From Thermoplasmata archaeon (GTDB taxonomy: Archaea; Thermoplasmatota; Thermoplasmata; Sysuiplasmatales; Sysuiplasmataceae), in the NCBI GenBank assembly GCA_021806165.1, contig JAJZXY010000004.1, forward strand, positions 65,595-129,594: 64,000 nucleotides of DNA, given 5' to 3'. Every line of letters begins with the position of its first letter. Position 1 is the first letter of the stretch. The translations under genes and the position numbers were made by a program. A model generated the notes under the pieces. It worked only from the letters and a program-made list of their open reading frames with translations. It was not told the DNA's origin and did no database searches. Below, one piece after another: positions 15,056 to 61,460 of the stretch.

Positions 15056-15856
15056 TCACAGGCTTCCCAGGTAGATTTCGGTAGTCATCTCCATAAGCAC
15101 CTTCCCATCCTTCTGGTGTCTTTCAAACACGTCCGAGATTGCCTCCATCAGCTCCCCGTATGCATGTTCACCTTCAGCCGGCATGTAGGAGGCGGAGAGA
15201 AGGCGGCCCCTGAGACCGTCGAGAGTCAGCCATCTGTTATTTGGAAGCGTGAATCTCCTGTATGAGGAGAAGAAGAGGCGAAGCCCCTCGTCTCCCGGAC
15301 CCATGACAGGTGAGAAGTTCCTTCCGAACCTGCTGACAAGCTCCCGGTAGTCGGTGTTCAGCCCTCCAGTCCTGTCGCGTGTGTTGTATATGACAGCAGC
15401 CTTGCCGTTCCTTGATATGCGCCTGAGCTCCAGGGAGGCAGTTGAGGGGTTGAACCAGTGGAATGACTGCCCGGCGGTGACCATATCGACCGATTTATCC
15501 GGAAGGGTTGTCTCCTCGGCTGAGCCGGCGACGCTCCTGAACCCGCTGAACGATGAGAGAGCCTCCTCGGCGGCTGATCGCATGTCCGCATTAGGCTCAA
15601 CGCAGTAGACTGTGTTCCCGTTTTCCAGGAATAGGCTGCTGAGAATGCCCGTTCCGCTGCCTATGTCCGCTACGACGCTGCCGCTTCCGAAGGATGCCTC
15701 CCTTGCAAGTATCTCAAGAATGCCCCTGGGGTAGGGGGGCCTGTATTTCGCGTATGCTCCGGCCCTTCCGGTGAACCTGCTCTTTGCATCGGATGCGACC
15801 TTCCACTCAGACAATGCGCATCTCCTCCCTGAAGAACCGGCCGCCGGCATCGTCAA
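15056..15856 (-). CDS. Class I SAM-dependent methyltransferase
   Basis: Motif I 'VVADIGSGTGILS'. 266 aa. Confidence 0.6.
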   Translation of the reverse strand: MTMPAAGSSGRRCALSEWKVASDAKSRFTGRAGAYAKYRPPYPRGILEILAREASFGSGSVVADIGSGTGILSSLFLENGNTVYCVEPNADMRSAAEEALSSFSGFRSVAGSAEETTLPDKSVDMVTAGQSFHWFNPSTASLELRRISRNGKAAVIYNTRDRTGGLNTDYRELVSRFGRNFSPVMGPGDEGLRLFFSSYRRFTLPNNRWLTLDGLRGRLLSASYMPAEGEHAYGELMEAISDVFERHQKDGKVLMEMTTEIYLGSL

Positions 15857-16226
15857 GGCGCCACGATCTCGAGGAATCGGGGCTGCCCATCCTGATGCTC
15901 ATTATGAGGTAGGAGTAGGACGGCCATGCATGTGCCCGATCAAATTCGGAGGGAACAGAAGGATGGTCGGGGTGGGAGTGGTAGTAGCCAAGGACTACCA
16001 TGCCGGAGGCTGCTGCCCTCTTTTCCGCCTCCATTATCGACTGTGCATCAATGCTGTACCTCGTGCGCCTGGAATCGGGGGCGGAGTTGCGCGCCTTCCT
16101 GATTTCCTCAACCAGGTGATCGCGGCCGGCCCTGCCGATGAGGAAACCGCAGCATTCCTCCGGGTAGGTGGATACTGCATGCCGCCTGATCTCATCCAGC
16201 AGTGACAGAGGGAGAACAAGAGTCAT
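15807..16226 (-). CDS. JAMM/MPN+ zinc metalloprotease (Mec+/deSAMPylase-like)
   Basis: Catalytic motif E-x(n)-'HSHPDHPSVPSEFD' (HxHx7Sx2D) and 'EECCGFLIG'. The probable start is the internal Met 'MTLVLPLSLLDEI' at 16226, which avoids overlap with sufS. It is the last gene of the suf/cysO operon. Confidence 0.75.
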   Translation of the reverse strand: MTLVLPLSLLDEIRRHAVSTYPEECCGFLIGRAGRDHLVEEIRKARNSAPDSRRTRYSIDAQSIMEAEKRAAASGMVVLGYYHSHPDHPSVPSEFDRAHAWPSYSYLIMSIRMGSPDSSRSWRLDDAGGRFFREEMRIV

Positions 16227-16269
16227 CGCCTTGATATGAAAAGATGGTGGTAAAAAAAACTTGGCTGAA

Positions 16270-17508
16270 TCAGGCAAACACCTTTCTCACCCTGTCGATG
16301 GCCCGCATAAGTGCGTCGACATCATCCCTCCCGTTGTAGAGGTAGAAGGATGCCCTCGTTGTGGAGGGCTGTTCCAGCCAGTTCATCAGGGGCTGTGCGC
16401 AATGGTGCCCGGACCTTGTGGCGACCCCCTCTCTTCCGAGGATCTCGGCAACATCGTGTCCATGGACACCCTTCAGGTTGAATGAGATGAGGCCACTCCT
16501 CTCCTCCGGATCCCGGGGGCCGTATATCTCAATGTCTGGATGCTCCGACATCCTCTCCATTGCGTACGAGACAAGTGACCTGTCATACGCCTCGATCTTC
16601 TCCATTCCGATGCCACGCAGGTAGTCCACAGCAGCACCAAGGCCTATTGCACCTGAAATGTTCTGTGTTCCTGCCTCGAACTTGTAAGGCAGCTCGGCCC
16701 AGCTGGAGCCCGACTGTTTCACCTCACTTATCATTTCACCGCCGCCGAAAACAGGTTCCATCCTGCCCAGCAGTTCAGCCTTGCCATAAAGGACTCCTAT
16801 TCCAGTGGGTGCACACATCTTGTGACCCGAAACTGCCATCAGATCGCAGTCAATCTGCCTGACATCGACGGGCATATGCGGAACGGATTGAGCCGCATCG
16901 ACTATGAAAAGTGAGCCATTGTCGTGTGCAATCCTGCCTATCTCCCTTATGTTGTTTACCGTACCAAGAACATTGGAGACGTGGCTGACAGACACCACCC
17001 TTGTCCTCCCGCTGAGCTTCTCCATGAAATCGTCCATATCAAGCCTGCCGGAGGAGTCGAGCCCCGCAAACTTCACTTTCACACCCTTCCAGGAGAGCAT
17101 CTGCCACGGAACGATGTTTGAATGGTGCTCCATTACAGTGGTTAGCACCTCATCCCCCTCCTTCAGTGAATGTAAGCCGAGGCTGAGGGAGATTATGTTG
17201 AGCGCTTCCGTTGCACCGCGCACGAAAACGATCTCCTCCGGGCTCGCCGCATTTACAAATGACCTGAATTTCTCGCGTGATGCCTCGAATGCGTCGGTTG
17301 CCTTCTGGCTTAGCGGGTATATCCCACGGTGGACGTTGGAGTTGAACTCCTCTTCGAATGAGGAAACAGCACTTATCACAGAGGCAGGCTTCTGGCTGGT
17401 GGCTGCGCTGTCCAGATAGACGAGATTCTCGTTGCCTGGCGAGCTGAAGATTGGAAAATCTTCCCTGTACGGGGATTTTGCCGGCGGGATCTCTGTCAGA
17501 TGCATCAC
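16270..17508 (-). CDS. sufS: Cysteine desulfurase SufS (class V aminotransferase, group II)
   Basis: PLP-lysine 'SGHKMCAPTGIGVLY' and active-site 'RSGHHCAQPL'. 412 aa. Confidence 0.85.
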   Translation of the reverse strand: MMHLTEIPPAKSPYREDFPIFSSPGNENLVYLDSAATSQKPASVISAVSSFEEEFNSNVHRGIYPLSQKATDAFEASREKFRSFVNAASPEEIVFVRGATEALNIISLSLGLHSLKEGDEVLTTVMEHHSNIVPWQMLSWKGVKVKFAGLDSSGRLDMDDFMEKLSGRTRVVSVSHVSNVLGTVNNIREIGRIAHDNGSLFIVDAAQSVPHMPVDVRQIDCDLMAVSGHKMCAPTGIGVLYGKAELLGRMEPVFGGGEMISEVKQSGSSWAELPYKFEAGTQNISGAIGLGAAVDYLRGIGMEKIEAYDRSLVSYAMERMSEHPDIEIYGPRDPEERSGLISFNLKGVHGHDVAEILGREGVATRSGHHCAQPLMNWLEQPSTTRASFYLYNGRDDVDALMRAIDRVRKVFA

Positions 17509-20679: not shown

Positions 20680-22104
20680 TCAGTATCTGGCCATTGAAGG
20701 GTCCACCTTCAACGCCCATTCCACTATCCCTCCGGTCAGATTCCTGACCTTCTTGAATCCTATATCCCTCATGAAGCGGACTGCATAGCTGCTGCGCTGC
20801 CCGCCCTTGCAGTAGACAACAATCTCGTCGGCGGTGCTCAGTTCGCTCACCCTCGAGGGCAGATCGTTGACAGGTATGAACAGCGATCCATCGATCCTGT
20901 TGATTTCCCATTCCTGTGGTTCCCTCACGTCCAAGACCACCACCGGCTCCTTCGCCTTCAGCTTCCTGTCAAGCTCCTCTGCGCTTATGGAGAGGTCGTC
21001 TGAAAGTTCATTTCCCCTGCCCAGGCCGCAGAACTCCTCATAATCTATCAGTTCATGCACCGTGGGATTTTCACCGCACACAGGGCACCGGGGGTTCTTG
21101 CGGAGCGTCAGCTCCTTGAACTTCATCTTCATGGCGTCAAAAAGGACGAGTCTCCCGATCAGCGGCTCCCCTTCTCCCAGTATCAGCTTGATGGTTTCCA
21201 TCGCCTGTATAGTGCCTATTATGCCGGGCAGGACGCCCACAACCCCGCCCTCAGCGCATGAGGGGACGAGCCCCGGGGGAGGGGGGTTTTCATAGAGGCA
21301 CCTGTAGCATGGCCCCTTCCTGGCATCAAAGACGGAAACCTGGCCCTCGAACCTGTATATTGACCCGTAAACGTTCGTCTTTCCAAGCAGAACGCATGCG
21401 TCATTGACCAGATACCTGGTCGGGAAATTGTCGGTGCCGTCTATTACTATGTCGAAGTTCTTTATTATGTCGAGTGCATTTTCAGAGGTTATCCTCTCCT
21501 CGAACTTGATTATCTTGACAGTGGGGTTGATTCCCTTAATGCGCTCCTCAGCGGAATCAATCTTCTTGCGCCCTACATCCTTCTCCGAATGTATCACCTG
21601 CCGCTGGAGATTGCTGAAATCCACAACATCAAAGTCCACTATGCCAATTGTCCCGACGCCTGCCGCGGCAAGATAGAGGAGAAGGGGGGAGCCAAGGCCG
21701 CCCGCACCTATGACGAGGACCTTTGCCCTCTTCAGCTTCAGCTGTCCGCTGAGCCCGACCTCTGGGAGGAGCAGATGGCGGCTGTAGCGCTGTATGTCGT
21801 CGTAGGTGAAGTCGCTGCCTGCACCTGAGGAACCGCCTGCTATTGAGGGTATGAGGAAAATGGTGTCGCCTTCATGCACAGGAGTGGTCCCGCGCTGCAG
21901 GTACCGTATATCCTCGTCGTTCAGGTATACATTCACGAAATTCCTGAGCTGCCCGCTGTCATCAAACAGGTGTCTCTTCAGCTGCTGGTTTGCAGCCGTG
22001 ACATTGCTCAGGACCTCATCCACTGTCGCACCGTCGGCCGTGACAGCATCCCTGTTGCCCACGTAGGGCCTCAGGGGCGTTGGTATCATTACTTTCACAC
22101 TCAT
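20680..22104 (-). CDS. Fusion protein of a CysO-like ThiS/MoaD sulfur carrier (ends ..IAGG), a MoeB/ThiF E1-like adenylyltransferase and a rhodanese domain (MoeZ-like)
   Basis: Residues 1-91 'MSVKVMIPTPLRPYVGNRDAV...FVNVYLNDEDIRY...DTIFLIPSIAGG' form a beta-grasp carrier with a C-terminal diglycine. The linker 'SSGAGSDF' leads into E1 'YSRHLLLPEVGLSGQLKLKRAKVLVIGAGGLGS', which includes two CxxC pairs. The C-terminal rhodanese carries 'VVYCKGGQRS'. The start overlaps the cysM stop. Confidence 0.75.
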   Translation of the reverse strand: MSVKVMIPTPLRPYVGNRDAVTADGATVDEVLSNVTAANQQLKRHLFDDSGQLRNFVNVYLNDEDIRYLQRGTTPVHEGDTIFLIPSIAGGSSGAGSDFTYDDIQRYSRHLLLPEVGLSGQLKLKRAKVLVIGAGGLGSPLLLYLAAAGVGTIGIVDFDVVDFSNLQRQVIHSEKDVGRKKIDSAEERIKGINPTVKIIKFEERITSENALDIIKNFDIVIDGTDNFPTRYLVNDACVLLGKTNVYGSIYRFEGQVSVFDARKGPCYRCLYENPPPPGLVPSCAEGGVVGVLPGIIGTIQAMETIKLILGEGEPLIGRLVLFDAMKMKFKELTLRKNPRCPVCGENPTVHELIDYEEFCGLGRGNELSDDLSISAEELDRKLKAKEPVVVLDVREPQEWEINRIDGSLFIPVNDLPSRVSELSTADEIVVYCKGGQRSSYAVRFMRDIGFKKVRNLTGGIVEWALKVDPSMARY

Positions 22105-33622: not shown

Positions 33623-34846
33623 ATGGCAGCAGCGCAGCAGTCGGTGCCGCAGGAGCTATTGTTTGCAGCAAGGCAGTTTGCCAGCTACTACGGTTCACAT
33701 CCGGTCGCTGAAGTCCCTGGATTCAGTTCAAGGGAATTTGGATTCATGTTCTTCGACAGGGGATACGTGCACAGGCATGTGGGCTTCAATGACCGTGCGG
33801 ATTTGCAGAAATACCTTGCAGGCAAAGCTCCCTCGCATGCATACTACTCCACCGCCTATTATGAAATGCCCGCTGCTCACACAATGGCTGAAAAAGGATG
33901 GCTGGGTGCTGACCTGATATTCGACCTGGACGCGGACCATGTGAAAGGGTCCGAAGGCCTTCCCTATGAAAAGATGCTGGCCAGGGTCAAGGAGGAGATG
34001 ATAAGGCTATACGATGATTTCGTCTGCTCGGATCTGGGCTTTAGCGAAAAGGAGACTGAAATCGTGTTCTCCGGCGGCCGCGGATACCACATCCATGTGT
34101 ATGCAGACAGCGTGAGGAAACTGGGCAGCCATGAAAGGAGGGAAATTGTGGACTACATAACAGCCACAGAGCTCGATCTGGGCATCCTCTTCTCATCTAC
34201 AGTTGTGGACGAGGCACGCAGCGGAAGACCGCTGAAGATGACAAAGCTTCCGGAGATTTCCGAGGGTGGCTGGTACGGGAGGGCGAGAAGGGCGATGGAT
34301 TCCCTTCTCCTCGAATTGCAGTCCGTGCCGAAGGAGGAGGCTCTGGCCATGCTGGTGAGCAGCGGAGTGAAGAAGCAGCAGGCTGCGCGCCTGTACTCAG
34401 CACTCTTCGAGGAGGGGAGGAAGGACAGGATTCAGACTGAGAGTGTGCTTGAAGTCCTCACTGACAGGGAGGAGGATATCAGGGCATTCACGGCGCTTGT
34501 CCAGAAGAGGACTGTTCTGACCATGGCAGGGCAGACAGATGAGCCTGTCACAAGCGATACGCACAGGCTTATACGCCTGCCCGGCAGCCTCCACGGGAAG
34601 AGTTCGCTCAAGGTTGTGACTCTGAAGCGTGATGAGCTGACGGATTTTGAACCGCTCAGGGATGCCGTTGCGGACTTTCCCGACCATCCGGTTACAGTCT
34701 ATTCCGAAAAGGCGTTCCTTTCAGAGCCCGTGGGAGGCGAATCAGTGCCTGTGAAAGAGGGTGCCAATGAAATCCCCCTGAGGACTGCGATCTTCCTTAT
34801 TCTGAGGAGGAAGGTAAGGCTTCAGCCTCCAGGGGGGACAGGGTAG
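33623..34846 (+). CDS. priS: DNA primase small (catalytic) subunit PriS
   Basis: Catalytic motifs 'LIFDLDADH' and 'GGRGYHIHV'. 407 aa. Confidence 0.8.
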   Translation: MAAAQQSVPQELLFAARQFASYYGSHPVAEVPGFSSREFGFMFFDRGYVHRHVGFNDRADLQKYLAGKAPSHAYYSTAYYEMPAAHTMAEKGWLGADLIFDLDADHVKGSEGLPYEKMLARVKEEMIRLYDDFVCSDLGFSEKETEIVFSGGRGYHIHVYADSVRKLGSHERREIVDYITATELDLGILFSSTVVDEARSGRPLKMTKLPEISEGGWYGRARRAMDSLLLELQSVPKEEALAMLVSSGVKKQQAARLYSALFEEGRKDRIQTESVLEVLTDREEDIRAFTALVQKRTVLTMAGQTDEPVTSDTHRLIRLPGSLHGKSSLKVVTLKRDELTDFEPLRDAVADFPDHPVTVYSEKAFLSEPVGGESVPVKEGANEIPLRTAIFLILRRKVRLQPPGGTG

Positions 34847-40162: not shown

Positions 40163-41428
40163 TCAGATGAGCGTAGTCTGGAATTTCGCCCTGGCATTCT
40201 TGTATGAGCTGAGGAGTTCGTCATCAACGAGAAGCTCCCTGGTCTCGTTCAGCGGCACCGAAAGCTCAATCTCCTTTGTTCTTCCGCCCCTTCCGAACGA
40301 CCTGACGCGGGCACGAACTATTCCAAGCATATCAAGTTCAGAAATCAGGTCTCCAATGCGCCTCTGCGTAAGGGGTTGGACGCCAATAGAATTGCACAGG
40401 TTCCTGTAGGTGCCGTATATGTCGCCTGTAGTCATGATACGCCTCTTCTCAGCATAGATTATCATGGAAAGCAGCAGCATCTTCGACTGGGACGGCAGTG
40501 TCTTCACTGTCTCTGTCACCGTGTCAAGCTCAATCTTGTTCTTTGCCTGCAGCACGTCCCCGGCAGAGACAATGCTTCTGCCTTCCCTTTCTGCTGACTC
40601 GGCGGCCACCCTGAGCAGTTCCAGTGCCCTTCTGGCATCCCCATGCTCCTGAGCTGCAAGTGCTGCACAAAGCGGAATGACGTCATCAGACAGAGCCCCC
40701 TGGGCAAATACCATGTCCGCCCTTATTTTCAGGATGTCAGAAAGTTCCTTTGCGTCATACGGTGAGAACACAATCCTCTCTTCACCAAGTCTGCTCTTCA
40801 CCCTTGCGTCAAGAAAGTCTGTGAACTTCAGGTCGTTGGCAATTCCAACCAGGGAGACCTTTGAGTTTACCAGATCATCGTTTATCCTCGAGAGATTGTA
40901 GAGCAGATCGTCTCCTGTCTTGTATACTAGCCTGTCAAGCTCATCCAGAACTACAATCAGGAGTCTCTTCTGCTTATCCACCATCTCCTTGAAGAGGGAG
41001 TATACACGCTCTATGCTCCACCCGTTGTATGGAGCACGTTCCTCAGGATTCTCGATGAACTTGTTTGCCATGTGCTGCAGGACACTGTAATTTGTATCCA
41101 CCTCGCAGCAATTGACGTATATGAAATCTATTCCTGACCCGGCAGAGTTGACGCGGGCAGCTTCGTTTGCGATGAACTTGACTGTAGCCGTCTTGCCCGT
41201 TCCCGTCTTTCCGAAGATGAGTACATTCGACGGCCTGTCACCCCTGAGGCCGGTAGAAACAATACCTGCCAGCTGATCTATTTCCCTCTCCCTGTGTGGA
41301 AGAATCTTCGGTATGTAAGATGGGCGGAGCATTTCCCTGTTGCTTTTGAATATGGTCTCCGAGGAAATGTACTTGTCAAAGACGTTCGCTCTTGCAACCG
41401 TCTCGTGGACAACCTTCTGCTCACTCAT
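40163..41428 (-). CDS. cdc6: Orc1/Cdc6 replication initiator
   Basis: AAA+ Walker A 'GKTGTGKTATVKF', Walker B 'IVVLDELD', and a C-terminal winged helix. 421 aa. Confidence 0.9.
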   Translation of the reverse strand: MSEQKVVHETVARANVFDKYISSETIFKSNREMLRPSYIPKILPHREREIDQLAGIVSTGLRGDRPSNVLIFGKTGTGKTATVKFIANEAARVNSAGSGIDFIYVNCCEVDTNYSVLQHMANKFIENPEERAPYNGWSIERVYSLFKEMVDKQKRLLIVVLDELDRLVYKTGDDLLYNLSRINDDLVNSKVSLVGIANDLKFTDFLDARVKSRLGEERIVFSPYDAKELSDILKIRADMVFAQGALSDDVIPLCAALAAQEHGDARRALELLRVAAESAEREGRSIVSAGDVLQAKNKIELDTVTETVKTLPSQSKMLLLSMIIYAEKRRIMTTGDIYGTYRNLCNSIGVQPLTQRRIGDLISELDMLGIVRARVRSFGRGGRTKEIELSVPLNETRELLVDDELLSSYKNARAKFQTTLI

Positions 41429-41439
41429 CCAAACTCAAT

Positions 41440-41768
41440 GCTCCTGTGTAGAATTAGAGGGTAAAGGGAGGGTAGAAGCTGAGTAATACTAAAACGTTTT
41501 TTTTATCCATTAACGTGACTAATATTTTATCCCGCTGTGGTGGCAGCGAAGGGATTTCCTGTGAAACATTTTGAAACCCGCCGTCGGGAGAAATAGGTTA
41601 GAGAGTCCATTGTTTCCACTGGAGAAATAGTCGGGGTGTAATTTCCAGAACGCGGCGACTTCACTTCAAAACCGTGAAAACTGCTGGGAACATGACATGT
41701 TATTTTTTATCTTACTTATCATTTACAGTTCACCGGCAGTTGACTCTTTCCACAGGAAATGAAGGACT
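41440..41768. other. Candidate chromosomal replication origin (oriC): AT-rich non-coding region with ORB/mini-ORB-like inverted repeats adjacent to orc1/cdc6
   Basis: The core 'gtttccactggag' (41612-41624) is the reverse complement of the ORB core CTCCAGTGGAAAC. Related copies are 'tttcctgtgaaac' (41555-41567) and, inverted, 'tttccacaggaaa' (41747-41759), with partial copies 'atttccagaa' and 'ccgtgaaaac'. Two AT-rich tracts (41489-41533 and 41691-41728) share 'ttttttatc'. Confidence 0.5.
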
Positions 41769-42149
41769 CTACATCTTGAACTGTCTCTTCTTCTCCAGCA
41801 CCTGCTCTTCATACTTTCGTGGCAGCACCCATGCCAGATATTCAATATCATCCAGACTCTTTACAAATTTCGCCTTGCTGTCTATCTTCAGGTATTTTCT
41901 GAGGGAGAATATCTTTCTCATGGAGTCGTACAACCACCAGCCGCCCGCCAGCAGAAGTAACGGTCCCAGGACAAGGTACCAGTAAATCCAGTTGCCTGAG
42001 CCGCTTATCGCGGGTTCAAATGCAAGCAACCAGTCCGGCAGCCTGGGCAGGAAGACACCTATAGATCCTATAAATGTCACCACAATGCCGGCGGCAAGCA
42101 TCACAGTTGATAGTTCAAACCTGTACTCTCTGGTGAAGGATTTGGCCAT
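41769..42149 (-). CDS. Hypothetical small membrane protein (2-3 TM)
   Basis: 126 aa with hydrophobic helices and no diagnostic motif. Confidence 0.35.
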   Translation of the reverse strand: MAKSFTREYRFELSTVMLAAGIVVTFIGSIGVFLPRLPDWLLAFEPAISGSGNWIYWYLVLGPLLLLAGGWWLYDSMRKIFSLRKYLKIDSKAKFVKSLDDIEYLAWVLPRKYEEQVLEKKRQFKM

Positions 42150-42310
42150 TCTGACATCTCTTCCTTGTGTTCGGACCGTTTCTGGCGAGGAATATCAGCC
42201 TACTAGCTGCATAGTGTATATAAATGATTCACCGGATGATGAGCGTCAGCCAGCTGCATGCCTGCGTAACACAATATCACTTGCTGCTGCGCCCGAACGG
42301 AGATGAATCC

Positions 42311-43642
42311 ATGGCACTTTTCATCGGAGTTGATGACACGGATTCTGCAACAGGAATGTGCACCACTTACCTGCTTACAGAATTGATCAGGGAACTTGAT
42401 TTCCCCGTGCTGCTTGGTTTCCCGCGCCTGGTGAGACTGAATCCCAACATCCCATGGAAGACTCGTGGCAATGGAGCCCTTTCAATGGCCATAATAGGTG
42501 AGCGGTCAGATGCAGTCCCAATAGGGATGATCGGAGGCAGGCGTGTGATGTCTTCAGAAACCCCTTCCTCCGAGGCACCTTGCCAGGAGGAGGTACTGGA
42601 GGCAGCATCGCGCGTTGTTGAGCGGCTGGCCGCCTTCCATGACGCCAATACCAACCCGGCAGTGGTTGTAAGCAAACTCAGGCCAGACGGGCAGATCTAC
42701 TGGAAGGCGGTACGCGAATTGGTTAGCGATGATATGGCGCTTCATTTCCTTTCAGAGGCAGGGGGCATTTACAGGAAGTGGAAGAGCGGGCGCGGCATTA
42801 TCGGGGCCACCGCATCCATTTCATGGGTTCCGCGTGACAGGAGCTATGAGATTATAAGTTACAGGCAGAGGGAAAGGTGGGGCACCGCCAGAGAGGTCAA
42901 TGCAGCAGACAGTGCAAAGCTAAGCGCGCTCTTCCCTTCCACCTTCAGCAACTACGACCCTGTAAACAGGCACTCCTGCATAGCGCCCGCCTCACCATGC
43001 CCTGTGCTGTTCGGCATACGTGGCAACGATCCGTCCGTGCTGGAAAGCGCAATGGAATCTGTTGGGAGTGAACCGCGCGACAGGTGGCTTATTTTCGAGA
43101 CTAACCAGGGAACAGACGACCATATAACCACTCCCGATGGAGGTCTTGAGCTCTTCAAGTCCTATTTCATTCGAGGCACCGTGGCGGGCATGCCAAGAAC
43201 AACCGAGGGAGGGCATGTATTCCTTGAACTGACTACGAGCCACGGCGCTATCACCTGTGCGGCATTCGAGGAGACGAAGGAATTCAGGAACACAGTCAAA
43301 CAGCTGATACCAGGCGACATCATCGATGTCTGGGGCAGTATGAAACAGGGAAAGATCGGCATAACCTTCAACCTTGAGAAGATGGCAGTCAGGGCACTGG
43401 CCAAGAAGCTTGTCAAGGAGTCCAATCCCTCCTGCCCCGAGTGCGGAAGGCGCATGCATTCAGCCGGCAGCGGAGCCTGGTACAGGTGCAGAGCCTGTGG
43501 AACGCGTTCGACGGAATCGGTATTCAGGGAGGAGGAGCGGACAGTATCGCCCGGGCTCTATTCCGTAGCAGCCTCCTCCAGGAGGCATCTTTCGAGACCT
43601 CCTGAGAGGGAAGCGGTGTATGTGGCCGGCGGCAGCAGATGA
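42311..43642 (+). CDS. tiaS: tRNA(Ile2) 2-agmatinylcytidine synthetase TiaS
   Basis: N-terminus 'MALFIGVDDTDSATGMCTTYL' is the TiaS kinase-domain signature. There is a C-terminal zinc ribbon 'CPECGRRMHSAGSGAWYRCRACG'. The internal Met at 42311 is used. Confidence 0.75.
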   Translation: MALFIGVDDTDSATGMCTTYLLTELIRELDFPVLLGFPRLVRLNPNIPWKTRGNGALSMAIIGERSDAVPIGMIGGRRVMSSETPSSEAPCQEEVLEAASRVVERLAAFHDANTNPAVVVSKLRPDGQIYWKAVRELVSDDMALHFLSEAGGIYRKWKSGRGIIGATASISWVPRDRSYEIISYRQRERWGTAREVNAADSAKLSALFPSTFSNYDPVNRHSCIAPASPCPVLFGIRGNDPSVLESAMESVGSEPRDRWLIFETNQGTDDHITTPDGGLELFKSYFIRGTVAGMPRTTEGGHVFLELTTSHGAITCAAFEETKEFRNTVKQLIPGDIIDVWGSMKQGKIGITFNLEKMAVRALAKKLVKESNPSCPECGRRMHSAGSGAWYRCRACGTRSTESVFREEERTVSPGLYSVAASSRRHLSRPPEREAVYVAGGSR

Positions 43643-51349: not shown

Positions 51350-53344
51350 TCATTCATTCCCCGGGCCGTTGCCCTCAAGATCGAACTGTTTCACAGTATA
51401 GTTGCGGGGGCTTGAAAATGGCCTGAAATACTTCCCGTTTCCCTTGTAGAACTTGGAGAAGAACTCCACATAGATCAGCCTTGCGCCCTGTATTCCCGGC
51501 TCAAACACAGCGATTATCAGGTTGAACAGCTGCCCGACGACAAGAATGACGACCCCGACCACTGCCAGGAGGGGGGACTTGGCCACACCCTTGAGGAATA
51601 TGATGTCAATGACCTCTGCCAGGATCACTGAAGCAAGCAATATTCCGACTATCCTTGTGTATGACAGAATGTGGCTGATGATCGAGGGGAGTTCCATTGC
51701 GCCCATCGTCCCCTCCGAGGCGAATATAGTAACCACCCCGGCCACCAGCATGGCTATGGAGGCAAGGCCCGAGACGGAGCCTGTTATTGAAGCGTGATGT
51801 ATCAGCCCAAGGCCGAGCATGGATATTCCCCAGGCAAAGAGGAGCCAGCCTATCTTGCCCGCTATTCCCCTCCTGTGCCCCTTCGTGTACTCGTTGTATG
51901 CACCCAGCACAAGTCCCAGGGAGACAAGCGAGAGGCCGAAGTAACCCGTAAAGAGGAGCAGCTTCCCGACACCGGCATCGAAGACCGTGGAGGAGGTTAC
52001 CAGCGAGAGGGAGGAGCCTGCAAGCCCCATGTCAAGGACTGTGACAGGCAGCACCGAGAAGCCGAAGAACTCGTTGAAAAGCAGTCCTGCAACTATGGCT
52101 ATTATGGAGGAAGGTATCAGGGCCTTTGCGAGCGTCCTCAGCGCACTGGGTCCCATGATCATCAGGACAAACCCCGACAGCATCTTCGGTATGTGGCTCT
52201 TCCTCACGGGATGGTCTATGCGATGGATTATGAACAGTGATATGAGCAGAATGGCAAGCCCGTAGCCCCAGTCACCTACCATTATGCCGAAGAAGAACGG
52301 GAAGACAAGTGCGAACACCAGTGTGGGGTCAACCTCGTATTCCTGTGGCAGTGAATAGAACCTGATGAAGAACTCAAAGAGCTTCACCCCTCTGGGATTC
52401 TTCAGAAGCGTCGGAGGCTGCTCCTCGGTCTTGACCACCGATACAATGACATTGCCTCCTGTTATGTTTTCCAGCATGTCCACAAGCATCTTGTGGTACC
52501 TCGCCGGCAGCCAACCCTCAAGTGCAAAACTGTCCCTTGTTGAAGCCAGCTTCTCAGATACCTCGAACTTCCTGGACTCGATCTCAAGCTGCTCCCTTAT
52601 CTGGGCAACAGGCGCAAACCACTTTTCAGAGAGTTCGACAAGCCTGGTCCGTATGTCCGCGAGCTCTCCCTGCAGCTTCGTTATGCTCGAGCGCGATTCC
52701 TCGATGAATGCGTCCGGCCTCCCCGACATCTGGGGGACAGCCACTATCAGGAATCCGCGCTCGTTTGAAAGCCTTGCCAGATCGGAGTCCTTTCCAGCAG
52801 GCACGGATACAAGGAAATAATTGTTGTGCAGATCTGCGCATACCGCATCCGGAATGCTGCCAATCACGGAAGAGCGTATGTCAGAGCCTTCCTGCTTTTT
52901 CGCAAGGAAGGAGAGTATAAGCCTCCCGGAGTAAATTGAAAGGTCCTGCCCCGCGGGCGCCAGTGCTTCGGCAATCCTGATCTTCTCCCCTATCTCCCTC
53001 AGCTCGGTCGAAATTGCAGCATCCCTCTCCTTCAGCTGCTTGAGCTCCGGCTCTATGTTGACCTGCGAAGCCGCCTCAAGAAGTTCCTCAAGCGACTTGA
53101 AATACTTTCTTTCAGCCTGCCTCCTGGGCAGTATTGCCTCCATGCCCCTGAACCTGAGCAGCTCGGAGCTGAGCTTCTCGTAGCTGCGTGAAGCTGTCCC
53201 CTTTTCCATCAGGCCTGCTATGTCACCGCTTACATCTTCCAGCTGCATGACTCCCGCATCATGAAGGGCGGAAACCACAAGGCTGCGCTTCGAGTTGGCC
53301 CCTATTATGCGTATCCTAACGATCTTCTCAGGTTTGAGCGCCAT
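51350..53344 (-). CDS. atpI: A-type (A1Ao) ATP synthase subunit I (a-subunit homologue)
   Basis: 664 aa: N-terminal soluble coiled-coil domain plus C-terminal ~7 TM helices. It is the last gene of the ATPase operon. Confidence 0.85.
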   Translation of the reverse strand: MALKPEKIVRIRIIGANSKRSLVVSALHDAGVMQLEDVSGDIAGLMEKGTASRSYEKLSSELLRFRGMEAILPRRQAERKYFKSLEELLEAASQVNIEPELKQLKERDAAISTELREIGEKIRIAEALAPAGQDLSIYSGRLILSFLAKKQEGSDIRSSVIGSIPDAVCADLHNNYFLVSVPAGKDSDLARLSNERGFLIVAVPQMSGRPDAFIEESRSSITKLQGELADIRTRLVELSEKWFAPVAQIREQLEIESRKFEVSEKLASTRDSFALEGWLPARYHKMLVDMLENITGGNVIVSVVKTEEQPPTLLKNPRGVKLFEFFIRFYSLPQEYEVDPTLVFALVFPFFFGIMVGDWGYGLAILLISLFIIHRIDHPVRKSHIPKMLSGFVLMIMGPSALRTLAKALIPSSIIAIVAGLLFNEFFGFSVLPVTVLDMGLAGSSLSLVTSSTVFDAGVGKLLLFTGYFGLSLVSLGLVLGAYNEYTKGHRRGIAGKIGWLLFAWGISMLGLGLIHHASITGSVSGLASIAMLVAGVVTIFASEGTMGAMELPSIISHILSYTRIVGILLASVILAEVIDIIFLKGVAKSPLLAVVGVVILVVGQLFNLIIAVFEPGIQGARLIYVEFFSKFYKGNGKYFRPFSSPRNYTVKQFDLEGNGPGNE

Positions 53345-53348
53345 CCCA

Positions 53349-53672
53349 CTATTCCTCTAGGTATTCGCGTATGAGCCTGTTCACCATCTCTTCCAGCTGT
53401 GCTGCGGTTATCTTCAGTTTCATTCCGGAAGCTTCCTTCCGGGCGCTTTCCACAATCTCGTCACATTTGACCCTGACATCCCCGCGCACCTTCTCCAGAG
53501 CATCCAGGTAATTGCGCTGGGCCTCTTCCCTGGCAGCTTCCAGGGAGGCCGAGAGCTCACTCTTCCTCTGTTCAAGCATCTCCTCCTGCTTCTGGGCGAA
53601 ATCCCTGATTTCTGCCTCTACAGACTCTTCCTTCTCCTTGATTGCTCTAAGCGCATCTATATCGCCGGTCAT
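53349..53672 (-). CDS. atpH: A-type ATP synthase subunit H (peripheral-stalk coiled coil)
   Basis: 107-aa charged coiled-coil protein directly upstream of atpI. Confidence 0.5.
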   Translation of the reverse strand: MTGDIDALRAIKEKEESVEAEIRDFAQKQEEMLEQRKSELSASLEAAREEAQRNYLDALEKVRGDVRVKCDEIVESARKEASGMKLKITAAQLEEMVNRLIREYLEE

Positions 53673-53841
53673 TCAGATCACTCCGGAAATGAAGAGAGCC
53701 AGCACAACCACAACAACAGCAATGTTGAGCGTGTATACAAGCCTCCGTACAAGCATGAACCTGCGCAGGGGGCGGTTTCCCCTGATCATGTCGGGTGTGA
53801 TGGCAACCTCCTTCACGAAATGCTTTGCCTTGTACCTGTGC

Positions 53842-54513
53842 CTAGGCTGATACATCTGCCGCCTCCTGGCTGTCACGCTGTACCATCTTCCTCTTGATTA
53901 CCTTCAGCGTGGTGAAAGTATCTCTCTCAATCTCGTCCAGGCGCATCCTGATCTGCTTTGCGGAATATGTCAGCTGCGGGATGAGAATGTTCTCAATCGC
54001 ATTCGACCTTCTCTTCGTCTTGTCGATTTCCTGCAGCAGCCTTCTCATAGAATTCTCCTTTTCGGCAATTTCCAGCATCGAGGAGAGCACCTTTTCAAAC
54101 TTCCTTATGGCGTCGTTTACGGGTGCGCTGACTGCTGTGGCGCGATACTCGGGGCTCAGCACCGACCGCCCCTCGCTGATGCTCAGCTCGGGGACCCTCA
54201 CACCCATCACGTTCTTTGCACCTACGCCGACATTGGAGCTGGATGACATCTGCGCGACCCTCTCAAGCTCCATCGCCCCGCTCATTACCTCGGCAAGCTT
54301 CAGCGTCCCTATGGCCCTGCCGATGTCCTCCCTCAGGTTCTCCCTCAGTCCCCTTATCTTCCTGCTGATGTTGAAAAACTCCATGACGAGGGCGTTGCGC
54401 TTCATCTTCAACAGATCAAGTCCCCTCTTTGCGAGCTTTATTCGTCTGTTGGTCCTGATCAGTTCGATCCTTGTGGGCTTGATCTGCTGTGCAGGCACTA
54501 CTCCTTCCTCCAC
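53842..54513 (-). CDS. atpD: A-type ATP synthase subunit D
   Basis: 223-aa coiled-coil central-stalk protein '[34 protein letters not shown]'. Confidence 0.85.
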
Positions 54514-55886
54514 TTCCCGTACTTGTCGATGAATTCCTTCTTGACCCTCTTCATTTCCGACTGAGGCAGAATGCTTAGCAGCTCCCAGCCAAGGTCGAGC
54601 GTTGTCTCGATGCTCCTGTCCTCGTAGACCCCCTGCTTGACAAACCTGCTTTCAAACTCATCCGCGAACTTGAGGTAAAGCCTGTCGCTGGCACCGAGGG
54701 CCTCCTCGCCGACGATTGCACTCAGCGACCTGAGGTCCTTGCCGTTTGCGTATGCGGAATACAACTGGTCGGCTGTTCCCCTGTGGTCTTCCCTGGTCCT
54801 GCCCTTGCCTATTCCCTGGTTCATGAGCCTGGAGAGTGAAGGGAGCACATCTATGCCGGGATAGATGCCCTTCCTCTGCAGGTCACGGCTCAGGACAGTC
54901 TGCCCCTCGGTTATGTAGCCCGTGAGGTCAGGTATCGGGTGTGTGATGTCGTCTCCCGGCATGGTAAGAATAGGTATCTGGGTTATGGAACCGTTCTTTC
55001 CCCTGATCTTCCCGGCCCTCTCGTATATCGTGCTGAGGTCGGTGTACATGTATCCCGGATATCCCCTTCTGCCCGGAACCTCCTCCCTGGCCGAGGATAT
55101 CTCCCTGAGCGCCTCGCAGTAGTTTGTCATGTCCGACAGAATGACAAGTATGTGCATCTCCCTTTCATAAGCGAGGTACTCGGCCGTAGTTAGCGCGACC
55201 TTTGGAAGCATTATCCTTTCCATCGAAGGGTCTGATGAAAGATTCAGGAACAGGACGGCCCTTGAGAGTGCGCCCGTATTCCTGAATTCATTAATGAAGA
55301 AATTCGCCTCCTCGCTCGTAATGCCCATCGCGCCGAATATGACGGCGAAGTTCTCCCCCTTGCCAAGCACCTTTGCCTGTCTTGCAATCTGTGCGGCAAG
55401 CATGTTGTGTGCCAGACCAGAGCCTGAGAATATCGGAAGTTTCTGTCCCCTGACGAGTGTGTTCATTCCGTCTATCGTCGATATGCCTGTCTCTATGAAT
55501 TCGGAAGGTTCCTCCCTGGAGTAGGGGTTTATCGCGTTGCCCACGATCTCCACCCTTTCCTTGCTTATCAGCGAAGGGCCGCCGTCGGAAGGCTCGCCAA
55601 GACCGTTGAATATCCTTCCGAGCATCTCGTCCGATACTGTGATCCTTGCCGTGCTCCCCGAGAACTTCACCCTGGTCTTGCCGATATCCATCCCGGAAGT
55701 GGGACCGAACACCTGTACTACGGCAAGACCCTTGCTTGTGTCAAGGACCTGGCCTGTCCTTGTAGTGCCGTCGGGAGTGCTGATCTCCACAAGCTCGTTG
55801 TAAGCGGCATTTCCAACCTTTTCGACAAACAGAAGAGGGCCCGTTATCTGTGAAATAGACTTGTAGCTTATTCCAGGCATGTTCAA
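54498..55886 (-). CDS. atpB: A-type ATP synthase subunit B (regulatory)
   Basis: 462 aa. '[13 protein letters not shown]', with a degenerate P-loop '[19 protein letters not shown]'. Confidence 0.9.
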
Positions 55887-57646
55887 GCACCTACCATTTC
55901 CGCACCGGCAGTCTTCAGCTGCTCCCTTATCTCCTCAAGAAGGCCCGAAAAGAATTTCTCCACGTCCTCCTCCTTTGTCTCCTTCATCCTTGATATTTTC
56001 TCCCTGACAGGAAGTGATGAGAGCTGTTCCATCGTGGCTCCCCTCTCCAGCGCGTCGTTCTGCAGCCTCCCCATCTCCATGATGGCGTTAAGCATACCGA
56101 ACTGCTTTGCCGGGGAGCAGTATGAGTCGACTTCATCGAAGGCGCTCTGCTGCAGGAAATCCTCCCTTATCATCCTCGCTATGTCCAGCACCGCCTTCTC
56201 CTTCTCTGGAAGGGCGTCATATCCGACAAGCTGGACAACCTCCTGAAGCTCGGCCTCCTTCTGCAGTATCGCCATTGCCTCCGAATAGGCAGCCCCCCAC
56301 CCCTTGGACACATTGTCCTCGAACCATTTTTCCAGCTCGCCCTGGTAGAGGGAATAGCTGTTCAGCCAGTTTATCGATGGGAAGTGCCTCCTGGAGGCAA
56401 GGGAGGAATCCAGTGCCCAGAAGACCCTTGTGACCCTCAGTGTGTTTTGCGATACAGGCTCGGACACATCGCCGCCCGGCGGGGAAACAGCTCCCACAAT
56501 TGTGACTGAACCGTACCTCTCCTCGTTCGACACAACCTTTGCGTTGCCTGAGCGCTCGTAGAATTCGGAAACCCTCCTGCCGAGATATGCGGGATAACCC
56601 TCTTCACCGGGCATTTCCTCAAGCCTGCCCGATATCTCCCTGAGAGCCTCGGCCCAGCGGGACGTGCTGTCCGCCATCAGTGCAACGTCGTAGCCCATGT
56701 CCCTGTAGTACTCCGCTATGGTGATTCCGGTGTAAATGCTCGCCTCACGGGCGGCAACAGGCATATTCGATGTATTGGCAATGAGGACCGTCCTCTCCAT
56801 AAGAGGCTTGCCGCTCTTCGGGTCCAGTAGTTCAGGGAACGTGGTAAGTATTTCAGTCATTTCATTTCCACGCTCGCCGCATCCGACGTAGACCACAATG
56901 TCGCTGTCCGCCCATTTGGAAAGCTGGTGCTGGACAACCGTCTTGCCTGAACCGAATGGACCGGGCACCGCGACCGTCCCCCCCTTTGCAACGGGGAAGA
57001 ACGTGTCGATAACCCTCTGCCCTGTTATCAGTGGAATGGTCGGGGGCAGCTTGCCCATGACCCTCCTTGCGACCCTGACAGGCCACTCCTGCTTGAGCTT
57101 CACATCCGCTGTCCCTGAAGCGGTCTTTATAACAGCGACCACGTCGTTGACCGTGAATTCGCCGTTCTTTATGCTCTCGATCTTGCCTGAAACGCCGTAT
57201 GGGACCATTACCTTGTGGGTAATCAGGGATGTCTCCTGCACTTCCCCTATTATCTGCCCCTCGGACACCTGGTCCCCCTTCGCAGCCACAGTCTTGAATT
57301 CCCATTTTGCCGACTCGTTCAGCGGGGTGGCGGAAAACCCTCTTCGAATGAAATCGCCACTCTTCTCCCTTATGATGTCCAGGGGTCTCTGGATACCGTC
57401 ATAGATGGACTTGAGCAGCCCCGGGCCAAGCTCCACCGAGAGCGGTTTGCCCACGTTCTCGACCGCCTCCCCGGGTCTTATCCCGCTTGTGTCCTCATAA
57501 ACCTGGATTGTGACGTTTTTGCCCGCAATCCTAATCACTTCACCGACGAGTCCAAGTTCACCGACCCTGACGACATCGTACATTCTGACGCCTTCCAGGT
57601 CTTCGGCTATGACCACCGGACCGGATACTCTGGCAACCTTTCCCAT
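55883..57646 (-). CDS. atpA: A-type ATP synthase subunit A (catalytic), no intein
   Basis: 587 aa. P-loop '[14 protein letters not shown]'. Confidence 0.9.
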
Positions 57647-57650
57647 TTGT

Positions 57651-57977
57651 TCACCTGCCTATATCGACGCCAAGGACGCGCTTGGCAAACTTCTCAATCG
57701 ACTCTTCATCCCCTCCCCCAGGGAGCGGAACAAAAACAACCAGCGGCACAGTGGACGTTTCAATCAATTCAAGCGCCCTCCTGTCCAGATGTTTTTTCAG
57801 ATTTTCAGAAACCATGATGAATGTGAAGCTTCCGGATCTGAAGAGTTCGTTGAACTTCTCCGCCCCCTTGGCTCCCTCTCCTATGAATGTGTTTGTAACC
57901 CCCAGCAGCCTGAAGCCCAGCGTGATCTCCCGTTCTCCTATAACCGCAATGCCGCCGAAGTTCTGTCCCCCCTTCAT
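57651..57977 (-). CDS. atpF: A-type ATP synthase subunit F
   Basis: 108 aa. '[19 protein letters not shown]'. Confidence 0.8.
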
Positions 57978-59041
57978 ACAGCACCCCCGAGAAGCATTTC
58001 TTCAGTCTTCCTCTGCTCTATACCGTATGAGGTGCCTATTACTATTGTCCTGAGGTTGTCCCTCTCCCTCTCCGCCCTGAGTATGTATGCGAAGGTTGAA
58101 CCCGCAGATAGCGCCTGCGACGACAGCACTTCCAGGTACCGCCTGAGAAGCGAGGATCTCATCTCGGACTCAAAAAGCTTCAGGTCCCCCTCGGACCTGT
58201 AGGACTCAACTGCCGCCTTGAGGTCATACCTGTCCTGGAGTTTCGCAGCAATGTCCTCCACTCCGCCCGAACCGTACATGGACTGGAGATCATCCATCGA
58301 CAGGTTCCCGTAGGGCAGGAGCTGCTCACGTATCCTGTCGAAGGGCACCGCCATGTCTTTTGCAGCCAGTATTACATTCAGGTTCTTGTTGTCAATCTCT
58401 TCCCTGAAGAACCTGGTGAGAGGTCCCTCGTCTCCATTGTAGAATTTGAGGCTCGATACGAGCCTGGCGTAGTAGTAACGGTCCAGCGCCTGCAGCATGG
58501 GTGCTATGTCATTTTCCTTCCTGTAGCTGTCGAGATACTGGAGCAGCTGCTGGCCGTAGCCGAAGCGTGTAAGATTTTCAGCAACCGCCTCAATGGTAGT
58601 CTGGTTGATCAGCACTCTGAAATCTTCGTTCTTCATTATGCCCCCGAATATGCCCATGGGAACATCCCTGAAGCTGACCAGGAATGTCTCAGTCTCCTTC
58701 ACGTCATAACCCAGGTATTTGGAGGTGATTACCGACTTGATGTTCTGGACGTCCCACTTGGACATGTAGGCACGCAAGAGATCAGAAGTCATCGGAGGCG
58801 CGGCAAAGAGTGCTGTCTTGTTCCTCTCGACAAGCCTTCGGTTTGCAGCCATCTCAAGAAGATCTGGATTTGTGTAAAGGGAATACAGTGCATTTATGTC
58901 ATCCTTGTATGCCGTTCCGGAAAGCGTTCTTGTCATGTCCTCGAGCGGCATGCCTATCAGTCCTCTGACAAAACTGTCGCTGAGGAACTCGGTCTGCGAG
59001 ACTTTGATCCTGCCATAGCTGCCGGAGTACGTGGAATCCAT
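57974..59041 (-). CDS. atpC: A-type ATP synthase subunit C
   Basis: 355-aa all-helical protein positioned between E and F. Confidence 0.8.
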   Translation of the reverse strand: MDSTYSGSYGRIKVSQTEFLSDSFVRGLIGMPLEDMTRTLSGTAYKDDINALYSLYTNPDLLEMAANRRLVERNKTALFAAPPMTSDLLRAYMSKWDVQNIKSVITSKYLGYDVKETETFLVSFRDVPMGIFGGIMKNEDFRVLINQTTIEAVAENLTRFGYGQQLLQYLDSYRKENDIAPMLQALDRYYYARLVSSLKFYNGDEGPLTRFFREEIDNKNLNVILAAKDMAVPFDRIREQLLPYGNLSMDDLQSMYGSGGVEDIAAKLQDRYDLKAAVESYRSEGDLKLFESEMRSSLLRRYLEVLSSQALSAGSTFAYILRAERERDNLRTIVIGTSYGIEQRKTEEMLLGGAV

Positions 59042-59610
59042 TACTTTGCACCAAGCTTGCCTGCAATCTCGAGCATCAGTTTTTCCCTGAGTTCCCTTTT
59101 CAGCGTTCCGATGGTGAGATCAAGTTCCAGGCTGCCATCAGAAGACTCTGCAACAATGCCACCGCTGGGGTCTACATCTGCGACTGCAACCTTCTTCCCC
59201 CTCGACTCCTTGATGAACCCGGCACCCTTCTCGCCCACCTTGACCACACAATCCTTGCCAAGGACACGCCTGGCGGTCGCAACCATGGCTGTGACTATGT
59301 CCTTGTATCCGTCCGAAGAGGAAAGTGCATCCATTATATCGTACGCCTTCGAAAGACTGCCTTCCACCAGCTCTGACTTCCTCTCCCTGACTATCCTCCG
59401 CGCCTCAATGTCGGCGTTGGAAAGCTCCCTGTTTTCCAGCGATTTGCAGTCTTCAGCTGTCTTCCTGCCGAACTCGTTCCTCAGCGCCTCGAGCCTTGCT
59501 TCAGTCTCCTTTGACAGAGAATCTGTCTTCTGCTGGAACTCCCTGGAGATGCGCTCCAGTTCACCGTTTCTGCGTTCCTCAATGGACTGAAGGATATTTT
59601 CCAGAGCCAT
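59041..59610 (-). CDS. atpE: A-type ATP synthase subunit E
   Basis: 189 aa: N-terminal coiled coil plus C-terminal globular domain. Confidence 0.8.
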   Translation of the reverse strand: MALENILQSIEERRNGELERISREFQQKTDSLSKETEARLEALRNEFGRKTAEDCKSLENRELSNADIEARRIVRERKSELVEGSLSKAYDIMDALSSSDGYKDIVTAMVATARRVLGKDCVVKVGEKGAGFIKESRGKKVAVADVDPSGGIVAESSDGSLELDLTIGTLKRELREKLMLEIAGKLGAK

Positions 59611-59975: not shown

Positions 59976-61460
59976 TCAGAGGACTCTGGTGGCAGAATGC
60001 TTCTGCCTGTTGTAGAACTCGCTGAAGTTGACCACGCTCAAATTGAGCGTTGAAAGATCGAATACGGGCATCTTGGCGGGAATGGGTGATATGTTCCTCA
60101 TCTTCTGGTAGGAAGTCTGAGACTGCCAGGTGGACCCGCTTATCAGTCTGACCCCCCTGTAATCGTCAAGCCCATACGAATGAACATGGCCTGTGATGAA
60201 GACGTCCGGTATCTCGTCAATGACCATGTAGTCCTTCTTCTCAGGTGCAAGGGGCGTCCTCTCGCCATAGACAGGCGCAAGATGCCTTCTCTTAAGCATC
60301 TCTTTCATTGCCTCAACTGGTCTCTCCCATGAGAGGCTGGGAATGCTGCTTATGATGTCATCGAAACTACGCCCGTGATAGGCAAGCACCTTTCTCCCCT
60401 CCAGCTCTACCGTCGCGGGGTTGCCCACGAATGTGACCCTGGAATCGAACATCTTCTGCAGCTCCTGCTGGAAGGTGGGTTGCGGCTCAGCCGGCCTGAC
60501 CGCATCATGGTTGCCAGGCATCACTATAACCCTCATCCAGTCCGGAAGCTGGGAAATGTATGATGCAACACGCTCATACTGTGCATAGACATCGTCTATC
60601 TCCAAATCCTCCTCCTGGTCCGGATAGACCCCGATTCCATCCGCTAGGTCGCCTGAAATCAGAATGTAGTTGATATCCCTCGCATCCGGCGAGCTCTTGA
60701 GCCACTCAATCATGAGGTCCCACTCCTCCCTCAGGAATGTCTTGCTCCCCACGTGGGTGTCGGAAAGGACTGCCACCCTCGAAGTGGAATCTGTCTTCTC
60801 CACCGGTCTGTTGTACGGGATATCGGGTCTTATCAGGGCGTCGGCGACAAGCATGCTCTTGTCCCTGTTCATCCTCCCCCTTACGCCTATTACCTCATCC
60901 TTCAGCACCGAGTCCTCTCCCTTCTCCGACATCACAAGGACCCTGCATCGATCCTCCTCGTCCTCTATCTCGAGTATCCTGTGGCCGTTCTTTGTGGTGT
61001 GGATGCTGTTGACTATGCCGATGACCTGGACCGTCCTGGTAAGCGCGACTGCGCGGGAAATGGGCATTGCCCCGGCCATGTCGCCTCTTCTGAGAAGGAT
61101 TCGCTTCAATGAGTGAAACCTGTCCGTGAAGTACTTTGCAAAGTCCTTCACATTCCCCCTGGATGTGCTGTTCCCCGTGACATCCTTTACAACCCTGGGC
61201 GGCGGCGGCGTCGAGGAAATGTGTCCAACTGTCCGGACTGGCTCAGCCTCCGCGCTCCCTACGTTCTCAGTCTGCCTCAACTCCCAGGCAAGCATATCCG
61301 GGGTTATCACAAGCGGCGGCTCATTGAATGAATGGAGCAGCTGCTCCAGCCTGAGCAGCGGATCTTCCCTGTCCTCCAGCTTCCTGCAGGCATCCGGGTC
61401 AATCAGAACTCCCCTGGAAGCCGCGAGCTTAAGTATCTCTTCGTGGACGGAAGATCCCAT
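59976..61460 (-). CDS. polB: DNA polymerase II (PolD) small subunit DP1
   Basis: Calcineurin-like phosphoesterase motifs 'VAVLSDTHVGS', 'ISGDLADG', 'MPGNHDA', 'FITGHVHS', plus an N-terminal OB domain. 494 aa. Confidence 0.85.
   Translation of the reverse strand: MGSSVHEEILKLAASRGVLIDPDACRKLEDREDPLLRLEQLLHSFNEPPLVITPDMLAWELRQTENVGSAEAEPVRTVGHISSTPPPPRVVKDVTGNSTSRGNVKDFAKYFTDRFHSLKRILLRRGDMAGAMPISRAVALTRTVQVIGIVNSIHTTKNGHRILEIEDEEDRCRVLVMSEKGEDSVLKDEVIGVRGRMNRDKSMLVADALIRPDIPYNRPVEKTDSTSRVAVLSDTHVGSKTFLREEWDLMIEWLKSSPDARDINYILISGDLADGIGVYPDQEEDLEIDDVYAQYERVASYISQLPDWMRVIVMPGNHDAVRPAEPQPTFQQELQKMFDSRVTFVGNPATVELEGRKVLAYHGRSFDDIISSIPSLSWERPVEAMKEMLKRRHLAPVYGERTPLAPEKKDYMVIDEIPDVFITGHVHSYGLDDYRGVRLISGSTWQSQTSYQKMRNISPIPAKMPVFDLSTLNLSVVNFSEFYNRQKHSATRVL

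Follow-up and report, generated by a model that had tools for sequence, protein, structure and literature searches.

The DNA analyzed here, a stretch of 64 kb referred to as the window, is housekeeping chromosome of a Thermoplasmata archaeon, with a Ca. Sysuiplasmataceae MAG among its nearest kin. It encodes a class I tRNA synthetase, ThyX, a SUF system, an oxoacid:ferredoxin oxidoreductase and an A-type ATPase. The sole Orc1 gene of the window, orc1/cdc6, lies at positions 40163-41428 on the minus strand. A gap of 41429-41768 separates it from a gene on the same strand for a 126-amino acid membrane protein (41769-42149), which forms the other boundary of the gap and has a weak match to DUF3198 (Pfam PF11433, E = 1.7e-5, under the curated cutoff). 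TiaS (42224-43642, minus strand) is the next gene away from orc1. The gene for the primase small subunit PriS (33623-34846, plus strand) is found about 7 kb from the gap, and that for a DP1-like small subunit of PolD with DNA_pol_E_B and Metallophos domains (59976-61460, minus strand) about 18 kb from it. PriS is also near orc1 in three relatives (L098-L100) of the clade described below. The A-type ATPase operon (51350-59610, minus strand) reads toward the gap. Elsewhere in the window, a 474-amino acid protein fuses ThiS, ThiF (E1-like) and rhodanese domains (20680-22104, minus strand); its gene adjoins SUF and cysteine-desulfurase genes, and a prokaryotic JAB protease (15807-16277, minus strand) is encoded a few kilobases away. 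The arrangement resembles a ubiquitin-like or sulfur-carrier system in which the carrier is fused to its activating enzyme.

The gap upstream of orc1/cdc6 had been described as free of coding capacity in the original prediction, and this was borne out: it holds only short open reading frames (45 and 42 amino acids, plus one of 103 amino acids running antisense into the neighboring gene). Using Rfam and tRNA searches, we found no known RNA families or tRNAs in the gap or in the rest of the window. The lone Rfam match in the window was rejected as a chance hit, since its E-value was 0.45 and the family is a vertebrate lncRNA. A scan for sigma-70 promoters and terminators returned nothing relevant; its models do not apply to archaea.

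The identity of the orc1/cdc6 product (421 amino acids) was examined by domain content and by comparison with solved structures. The protein carries the Pfam domains AAA, Cdc6_lid and Cdc6_C. Its best solved relatives are Orc1-1 of Saccharolobus solfataricus (2qby_A, E = 5e-101), the closest of the solved structures, and ORC1 of Aeropyrum pernix (2v1u_A, E = 1e-93), both of which were crystallized on ORB DNA, i.e. on origin recognition boxes. The window protein shares with both the overall architecture, the two arginines (RR) in the recognition helix of the winged-helix domain, the wing with its arginines (GRGGRTKE) and the glycine of the initiator-specific motif (ISM). These domains and relatives confirm an Orc1-1-type initiator gene adjoining the boxes described next.

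A repeat search detected an inverted repeat in which 41602-41623 and 41749-41770, each of 22 nt, are 77% complementary. From the aligned upstream regions of relatives we derived a 22-nt ORB consensus for the clade, TCCASWGGAAAYRRWGGACTCT, and both arms of the repeat match it exactly. The proximal ORB, TCCAGTGGAAACAATGGACTCT (41602-41623, minus strand), has its tail toward orc1, while the distal ORB, TCCACAGGAAATGAAGGACTCT (41749-41770, plus strand), has its tail away from orc1 and shares 2 nt with the stop codon of the upstream DUF3198 gene. The proximal ORB lies 173 nt from the orc1 ATG and about 80 nt upstream of a promoter-like block. The earlier reading of this locus was built on three boxes of 13 nt, quoted as GTTTCCACTGGAG (41612-41624), TTTCCTGTGAAAC (41555-41567) and TTTCCACAGGAAA (41747-41759), together with degenerate half-sites. 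All three strings are present at these positions, and the first and third are the cores of the two ORBs. Each box is actually 22 nt long, and the distal one reaches 41770, two bases past the end given for the origin. The claim of inverted boxes thus stands for two boxes and not for three plus half-sites.

To what extent would such boxes occur by chance? Allowing up to three mismatches, the degenerate 22-mer was found twice in 64 kb against 0.01 expected, none of 100 shuffles gave two or more matches, and at five mismatches no further match appeared in the window besides the two ORBs. The 11-mer core alone was not significantly enriched, with 5 occurrences in the window versus 2.55 expected; consequently, it is the extended box and its conservation that carry the evidence.

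The proposed second copy at 41555-41567 was rejected as an ORB, being tail-less and absent from relatives. It contains TTCACAGGAAA (41555-41565, minus strand, in agreement with the orientation first given), which has one mismatch to the 11-nt core and could at most be a third, tail-less mini-ORB of doubtful standing. Additional core-like sites with up to two mismatches numbered 4 in the gaps of nine clade loci, compared with 4.2 expected, and because such extras occur at background rate the third box was not accepted. It may still be a weak accessory site in this one genome. The half-sites quoted earlier are unsupported; a TGGAAA half-site was present in 5 of 8 spacers, a frequency that shuffled spacers also reach.

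We also compared the gap with the corresponding regions of relatives. The loci of four relatives were aligned first, one from a Ca. Sysuiplasmataceae MAG and three from Thermoplasmata MAGs, whose Orc1 proteins are 88-89% identical to that of the window. Four further contigs of the clade were then added, giving 8 other loci, or 9 with the window. By protein search, the clade consists of the window and 14 Orc1 clusters at 70-89% identity. The next Orc1 proteins, those of Methanomassiliicoccales and other Thermoplasmata, do not exceed 62% identity. A scan of metagenomes yielded only loci at or below 62% Orc1 identity, and these (80 loci) were used as an outgroup.

In the alignment, the gap is divergent and only weakly conserved among relatives except for two parts, a block next to the orc1 start and the copies of the 22-nt element. 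Each of the 8 other clade loci has exactly one inverted ORB pair, with tails outward and in a syntenic position. The distal box of the relatives is on the strand opposite to orc1, directly after the DUF3198 stop codon. The proximal box shares its strand with orc1 and is separated from the ATG by 160-197 nt, or by 330 nt in the case of L002 and L003. Seventeen distinct boxes were collected over the 9 loci, in which positions 1-11 and 16-21 are essentially invariant; GGACTC is present in 16 of them. The DUF3198 gene precedes the gap in every clade locus. In the four added members the order of genes is 3HCDH, thiolase, TiaS, DUF3198, gap, orc1 and a signal-peptidase-like gene, followed in most of them by dCMP deaminase and an M20 peptidase. 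In viral contigs the ORB variant gave six isolated single matches and no pairs, which we judge to be about the chance level for a collection of this size.

The spacer between the two ORBs (41624-41748) is 125 nt long with 59% AT and is a candidate DNA unwinding element (DUE). It includes a 40-nt stretch of 78% AT, compared with a window mean of 46%. The AT-rich tract that had been placed between the boxes was confirmed at about 41690-41728. Among the 50-mers of the 64 kb, the segment 41676-41726, also between the ORBs, ranks sixth in instability; the first rank is taken by 41481-41531, in the conserved block by orc1. Other gaps in the window are comparably AT-rich, and for this reason the tract is supportive only in context. 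Across the clade the spacers measure 125-226 nt with 57-68% AT, and their most AT-rich 40 nt reach 70-85%. No 6- to 8-mer was common to the spacers beyond shuffled controls, and no conserved ucm-like motif was detected by this comparison. Conserved boxes around a spacer constrained only in composition are what an ORB/DUE/ORB origin would be predicted to show.

The second conserved part of the gap is the promoter-like block (41457-41525, minus strand). It consists of TTAGTC, 13 nt, ATAAAAAAAACG, TTTTAGTAT and then CTTTACCCTC, and over the clade it follows the pattern TTTA[GC]TC, 13 nt, ATAAAAARAAC[GC]TTTTAGTAT and then CTTTACC. It is nearly invariant in the 9 clade loci, down to 70% Orc1 identity, and overlaps the least stable 50-mer. 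The block probably contains the BRE/TATA element and start region of the orc1 promoter. It has no counterpart among Rfam families. A hairpin in the 5′-UTR masking the orc1 ribosome-binding site was considered and rejected, as the consensus folds with only -1.25 kcal/mol and 4 pairs; possible anti-Shine-Dalgarno pairing in the orc1 leader is weak.

The boxes were compared with those of known origins. The archaeal ORB consensus is CTTCCAGTGGAAACGAAAGGGGT, and that of Methanomassiliicoccales is GTTCCAGTGGAAATGG-AGGGGTA (PMC4153887). The dyad core of the window ORBs matches both. According to the Ori-Finder-Arch preprint, an ORB is composed of a dyad, read by the winged helix, and an asymmetric G-rich element, read by the ISM, and 67% of the Cdc6-type origins predicted for complete or chromosome-level genomes have an ORB(-)/DUE/ORB(+) arrangement. 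The window ORBs have this layout, being inverted with outward tails around an AT-rich stretch. Sulfolobus oriC1, next to orc1-1, has an AT-rich region of about 130 bp between the inverted ORB2 and ORB3. One Orc1-1 monomer occupies each ORB in a defined polarity, and the origin loses its activity in vivo when either box is mutated (PMC12141716). The window resembles oriC1 of Sulfolobus and Saccharolobus in placing inverted boxes around an AT-rich region directly upstream of the initiator gene. It differs in having two supported boxes rather than three, in the lack of a conserved ucm-like motif in the clade spacers, and in an asymmetric tail of GGACTCT in place of a G-tract.

The nearest described lineage is Methanomassiliicoccales, with Orc1 proteins about 60-62% identical to that of the window. 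Their predicted oriC has ORBs mostly as inverted pairs beside orc1/cdc6.1 (Borrel et al. 2014, PMC4153887). They share with the window an identical ORB dyad and the neighbors orc1, signal-peptidase-like gene and dCMP deaminase. In two Methanomassiliicoccales-like loci (L005 and L022) opposite exact-core ORBs are about 1.5 kb apart, at 1247 (minus strand) and 2782 (plus strand) with orc1 at 3001, compared with spacers of 125-226 nt in the window clade. The surroundings of orc1 also differ. In three Methanomassiliicoccales loci of the outgroup followed over ±10 kb (L101-L103) the A-ATPase operon is found on the side of orc1 and is directed away from that gene, and in L102 and L103 RNA polymerase genes on the other side also read away from orc1. 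In contrast, the ATPase operon of the window is on the other side of the putative origin and is directed toward it, pointing to a rearrangement in the window clade that spans the origin.

The main departure from known boxes is in the tail. The canonical asymmetric G-rich element is absent, and a conserved GGACTCT, rather than the GGGGT G-tract, is found at the right position instead. In the outgroup, the exact core was followed by GGGG in 20 of 22 distinct boxes and by GGACTC in none, and the continuation was typically AGGGGT and then C5 or G5, as it is in Methanomassiliicoccales, whose boxes close with AGGGGT and a run of C or G. Between clade and outgroup the change is mainly at positions 18-19 (GG to AC), with loss of the second C/G run.

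The Orc1 proteins differ along the same division. The ISM turn reads RAPYNGWS in the window and in all 14 clade clusters, compared with RIPFTG[WL]S, the Methanomassiliicoccales form, in 106 of 106 outgroup Orc1 proteins (one KIPFTGWS). Both crystallized proteins have VPFTGLS, so that the residues up to the glycine are A-P-Y-N-G in the window and V-P-F-T-G in 2v1u and 2qby. At residues 132-135 IPFTG has become APYNG, with three residues of the ISM turn changed, and at residue 359, two residues past the RR of the recognition helix, the clade has changed T to G; both are DNA-contact regions that are invariant outside the clade. Diagnostic for the clade are 18 of 421 columns, three of them within a 4-residue stretch of the ISM and one in the recognition helix; by a rough estimate, the chance of such clustering in the ISM is about 0.1. 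In the structure from A. pernix, the dyad is read by the winged helix, and the G-tract is touched by the ISM through van der Waals contacts (PMC9738581). In the window, the DNA facing the ISM would read GGAC, unlike the GGGG of the A. pernix and S. solfataricus complexes. Mutating the Gly-Leu pair of the ISM alters the specificity of Orc1-1, and the only hints so far of a role of the ISM in origin discrimination come from mutants of Sulfolobus Orc1-1 and Orc1-3 (PMC3089459). We tentatively propose that initiator and origin of the clade could have co-evolved to a new specificity, the GGACTCT tail with the APYNG ISM, although we would put this at somewhat less than an even chance. Tail and ISM changed together just once, at the same node, and this single transition leaves co-evolution a reasonable hypothesis.

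Following the check proposed earlier, GC skew was measured over the window. Plain GC skew follows the coding strand and has no usable switch. Skew at third codon positions has almost no coding-strand component (coefficient about 0.005-0.016). Starting at 0, the cumulative third-position G-C climbs steadily to +390 near 39.2 kb and is down to +67 at 63.4 kb; the peak, a maximum over the 64 kb covered, is 2.4 kb from the ORBs. The best change point, at 38.0-39.7 kb (t = -4.7), was reached by 1 of 1000 permutations of gene order, and a step set at the orc1/DUF3198 boundary gave t = -3.85. The change point therefore places a polarity switch within 2-3 genes of the boxes. Relative L099 has the same skew polarity over ±10 kb (p = 3e-5), and L098 and L100 have no skew difference within ±10 kb. 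Two Methanomassiliicoccus-like loci have the same polarity as the window, confounded with gene strand. Over ±4 kb, third-position skew of 8 loci was dominated by gene-specific values, with DUF3198 positive in every locus, and gave no information on polarity. It had been anticipated that the skew would switch at the site and have its minimum there; a switch in third positions is indeed found nearby within the 64 kb, but the cumulative curve has a maximum, not a minimum.

Taken together, an Orc1-1-type gene lies adjacent to the gap, which contains two ORBs with the dyad core (T)TCCA-N2-GGAAA(C/T); these are inverted and flank an AT-rich element, and the boxes are conserved at the syntenic position. 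With a probability of roughly 80%, judged from sequence, we regard the gap as the Orc1/Cdc6-dependent chromosomal oriC of this uncultured Thermoplasmata archaeon. The consensus match, the conserved pair, the initiator and the layout all agree with the reading first proposed, that of an oriC with inverted ORBs flanking an unwinding element by orc1/cdc6. It is a well-supported but ordinary Orc1-dependent oriC of a known kind.

From what is known of Sulfolobus oriC1 and of the solved Orc1-ORB complexes we infer, by analogy, Orc1 binding, MCM loading and firing at this site. One ATP-bound Orc1 monomer would occupy each of the inverted 22-nt ORBs with fixed polarity, its winged-helix domain on the dyad core TCCASWGGAAA and its AAA+ ISM on the outward tail GGACTCT. 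The two bound initiators would bend and underwind the DNA and recruit the MCM helicase to the spacer (41624-41748). The duplex would then open at the AT-rich spacer, leading to bidirectional replication. Since orc1 and its conserved promoter adjoin the putative origin, initiator and replicator would be inherited as one unit.

The chief remaining alternative is a dormant or dispensable origin. Orc1 would truly bind the boxes, but they would be kept mainly as operators of orc1, while replication starts elsewhere or is driven by recombination. There are precedents, since in Thermococcus kodakarensis both Cdc6 and the presumed origin are dispensable (PMC5663688) and Orc1 paralogues can be transcription regulators (PMC9738581). 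The boxes are upstream of a strongly conserved orc1 promoter. Genes around the site also have no orientation bias, given that 23 of 45 left-arm genes and 10 of 20 right-arm genes are co-oriented with replication from it, and the ATPase operon would be transcribed head-on. However, the proximal box, about 80 nt above the promoter block and 173 nt from the ATG in the window (160-197 nt in relatives, 330 nt in L002 and L003), is poorly placed for a simple operator, and an operator would not need the distal box, the inverted geometry and the AT-rich spacer that are present in all loci. The protein is of the initiator type and not of the Orc1-2 regulator type, and the skew polarity switch is nearby. 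We consider a dormant or mainly regulatory site unlikely, though it deserves to be kept in mind.

In bacteria, a cumulative skew maximum marks the terminus. The third-position maximum seen here could on that rule mean that the site is a replication terminus or another polarity boundary, at which the boxes are bound by some other factor or are leftovers. The boxes nevertheless match the ORB consensus over the whole dyad, adjoin the initiator gene and have the architecture of validated origins. Furthermore, the verified Ori3 of Haloferax volcanii is located at local maxima of the third-position and non-coding cumulative skews (PMC12999951, 2026), so the sign of the skew is not decisive in archaea. 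The Methanomassiliicoccales loci with canonical ORBs at the orthologous orc1 have the same skew polarity too, although there it is confounded with gene strand. We consider a terminus very improbable. Hardly credible, finally, is the view that the repeats are palindromic by chance, or serve to bind an unrelated transcription factor, in a terminator/promoter gap that is AT-rich like many others: the 11-nt core is indeed not enriched, oligo-T and oligo-A runs in the spacers could be archaeal terminators for the upstream gene and other gaps are equally AT-rich, but the 22-mer was found twice against 0.01 expected, strict conservation of the inverted pair extends to relatives with 70% Orc1 identity while its flanks diverge, and the dyad core is identical to published ORBs.

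Reading the gap as an Orc1-dependent oriC places a likely replication origin for a Thermoplasmata lineage that is uncultured and known only from metagenome-assembled genomes. Its position aids genome closure, the orientation of replichores and estimates of growth rate from read depth. Apart from the pairing of tail and ISM, the locus is an expected feature of an archaeal chromosome; what is mildly new is that the tail reads GGACTCT in this lineage and goes together with a changed ISM. Programs that look for origins by the canonical G-rich motif may give GGACTCT boxes too low a score. The pairing is a small natural case bearing on the contacts of the Orc1 AAA+ domain and origin specificity; if the co-evolution is true, the clade would show that the ISM helps to discriminate between origins in nature.
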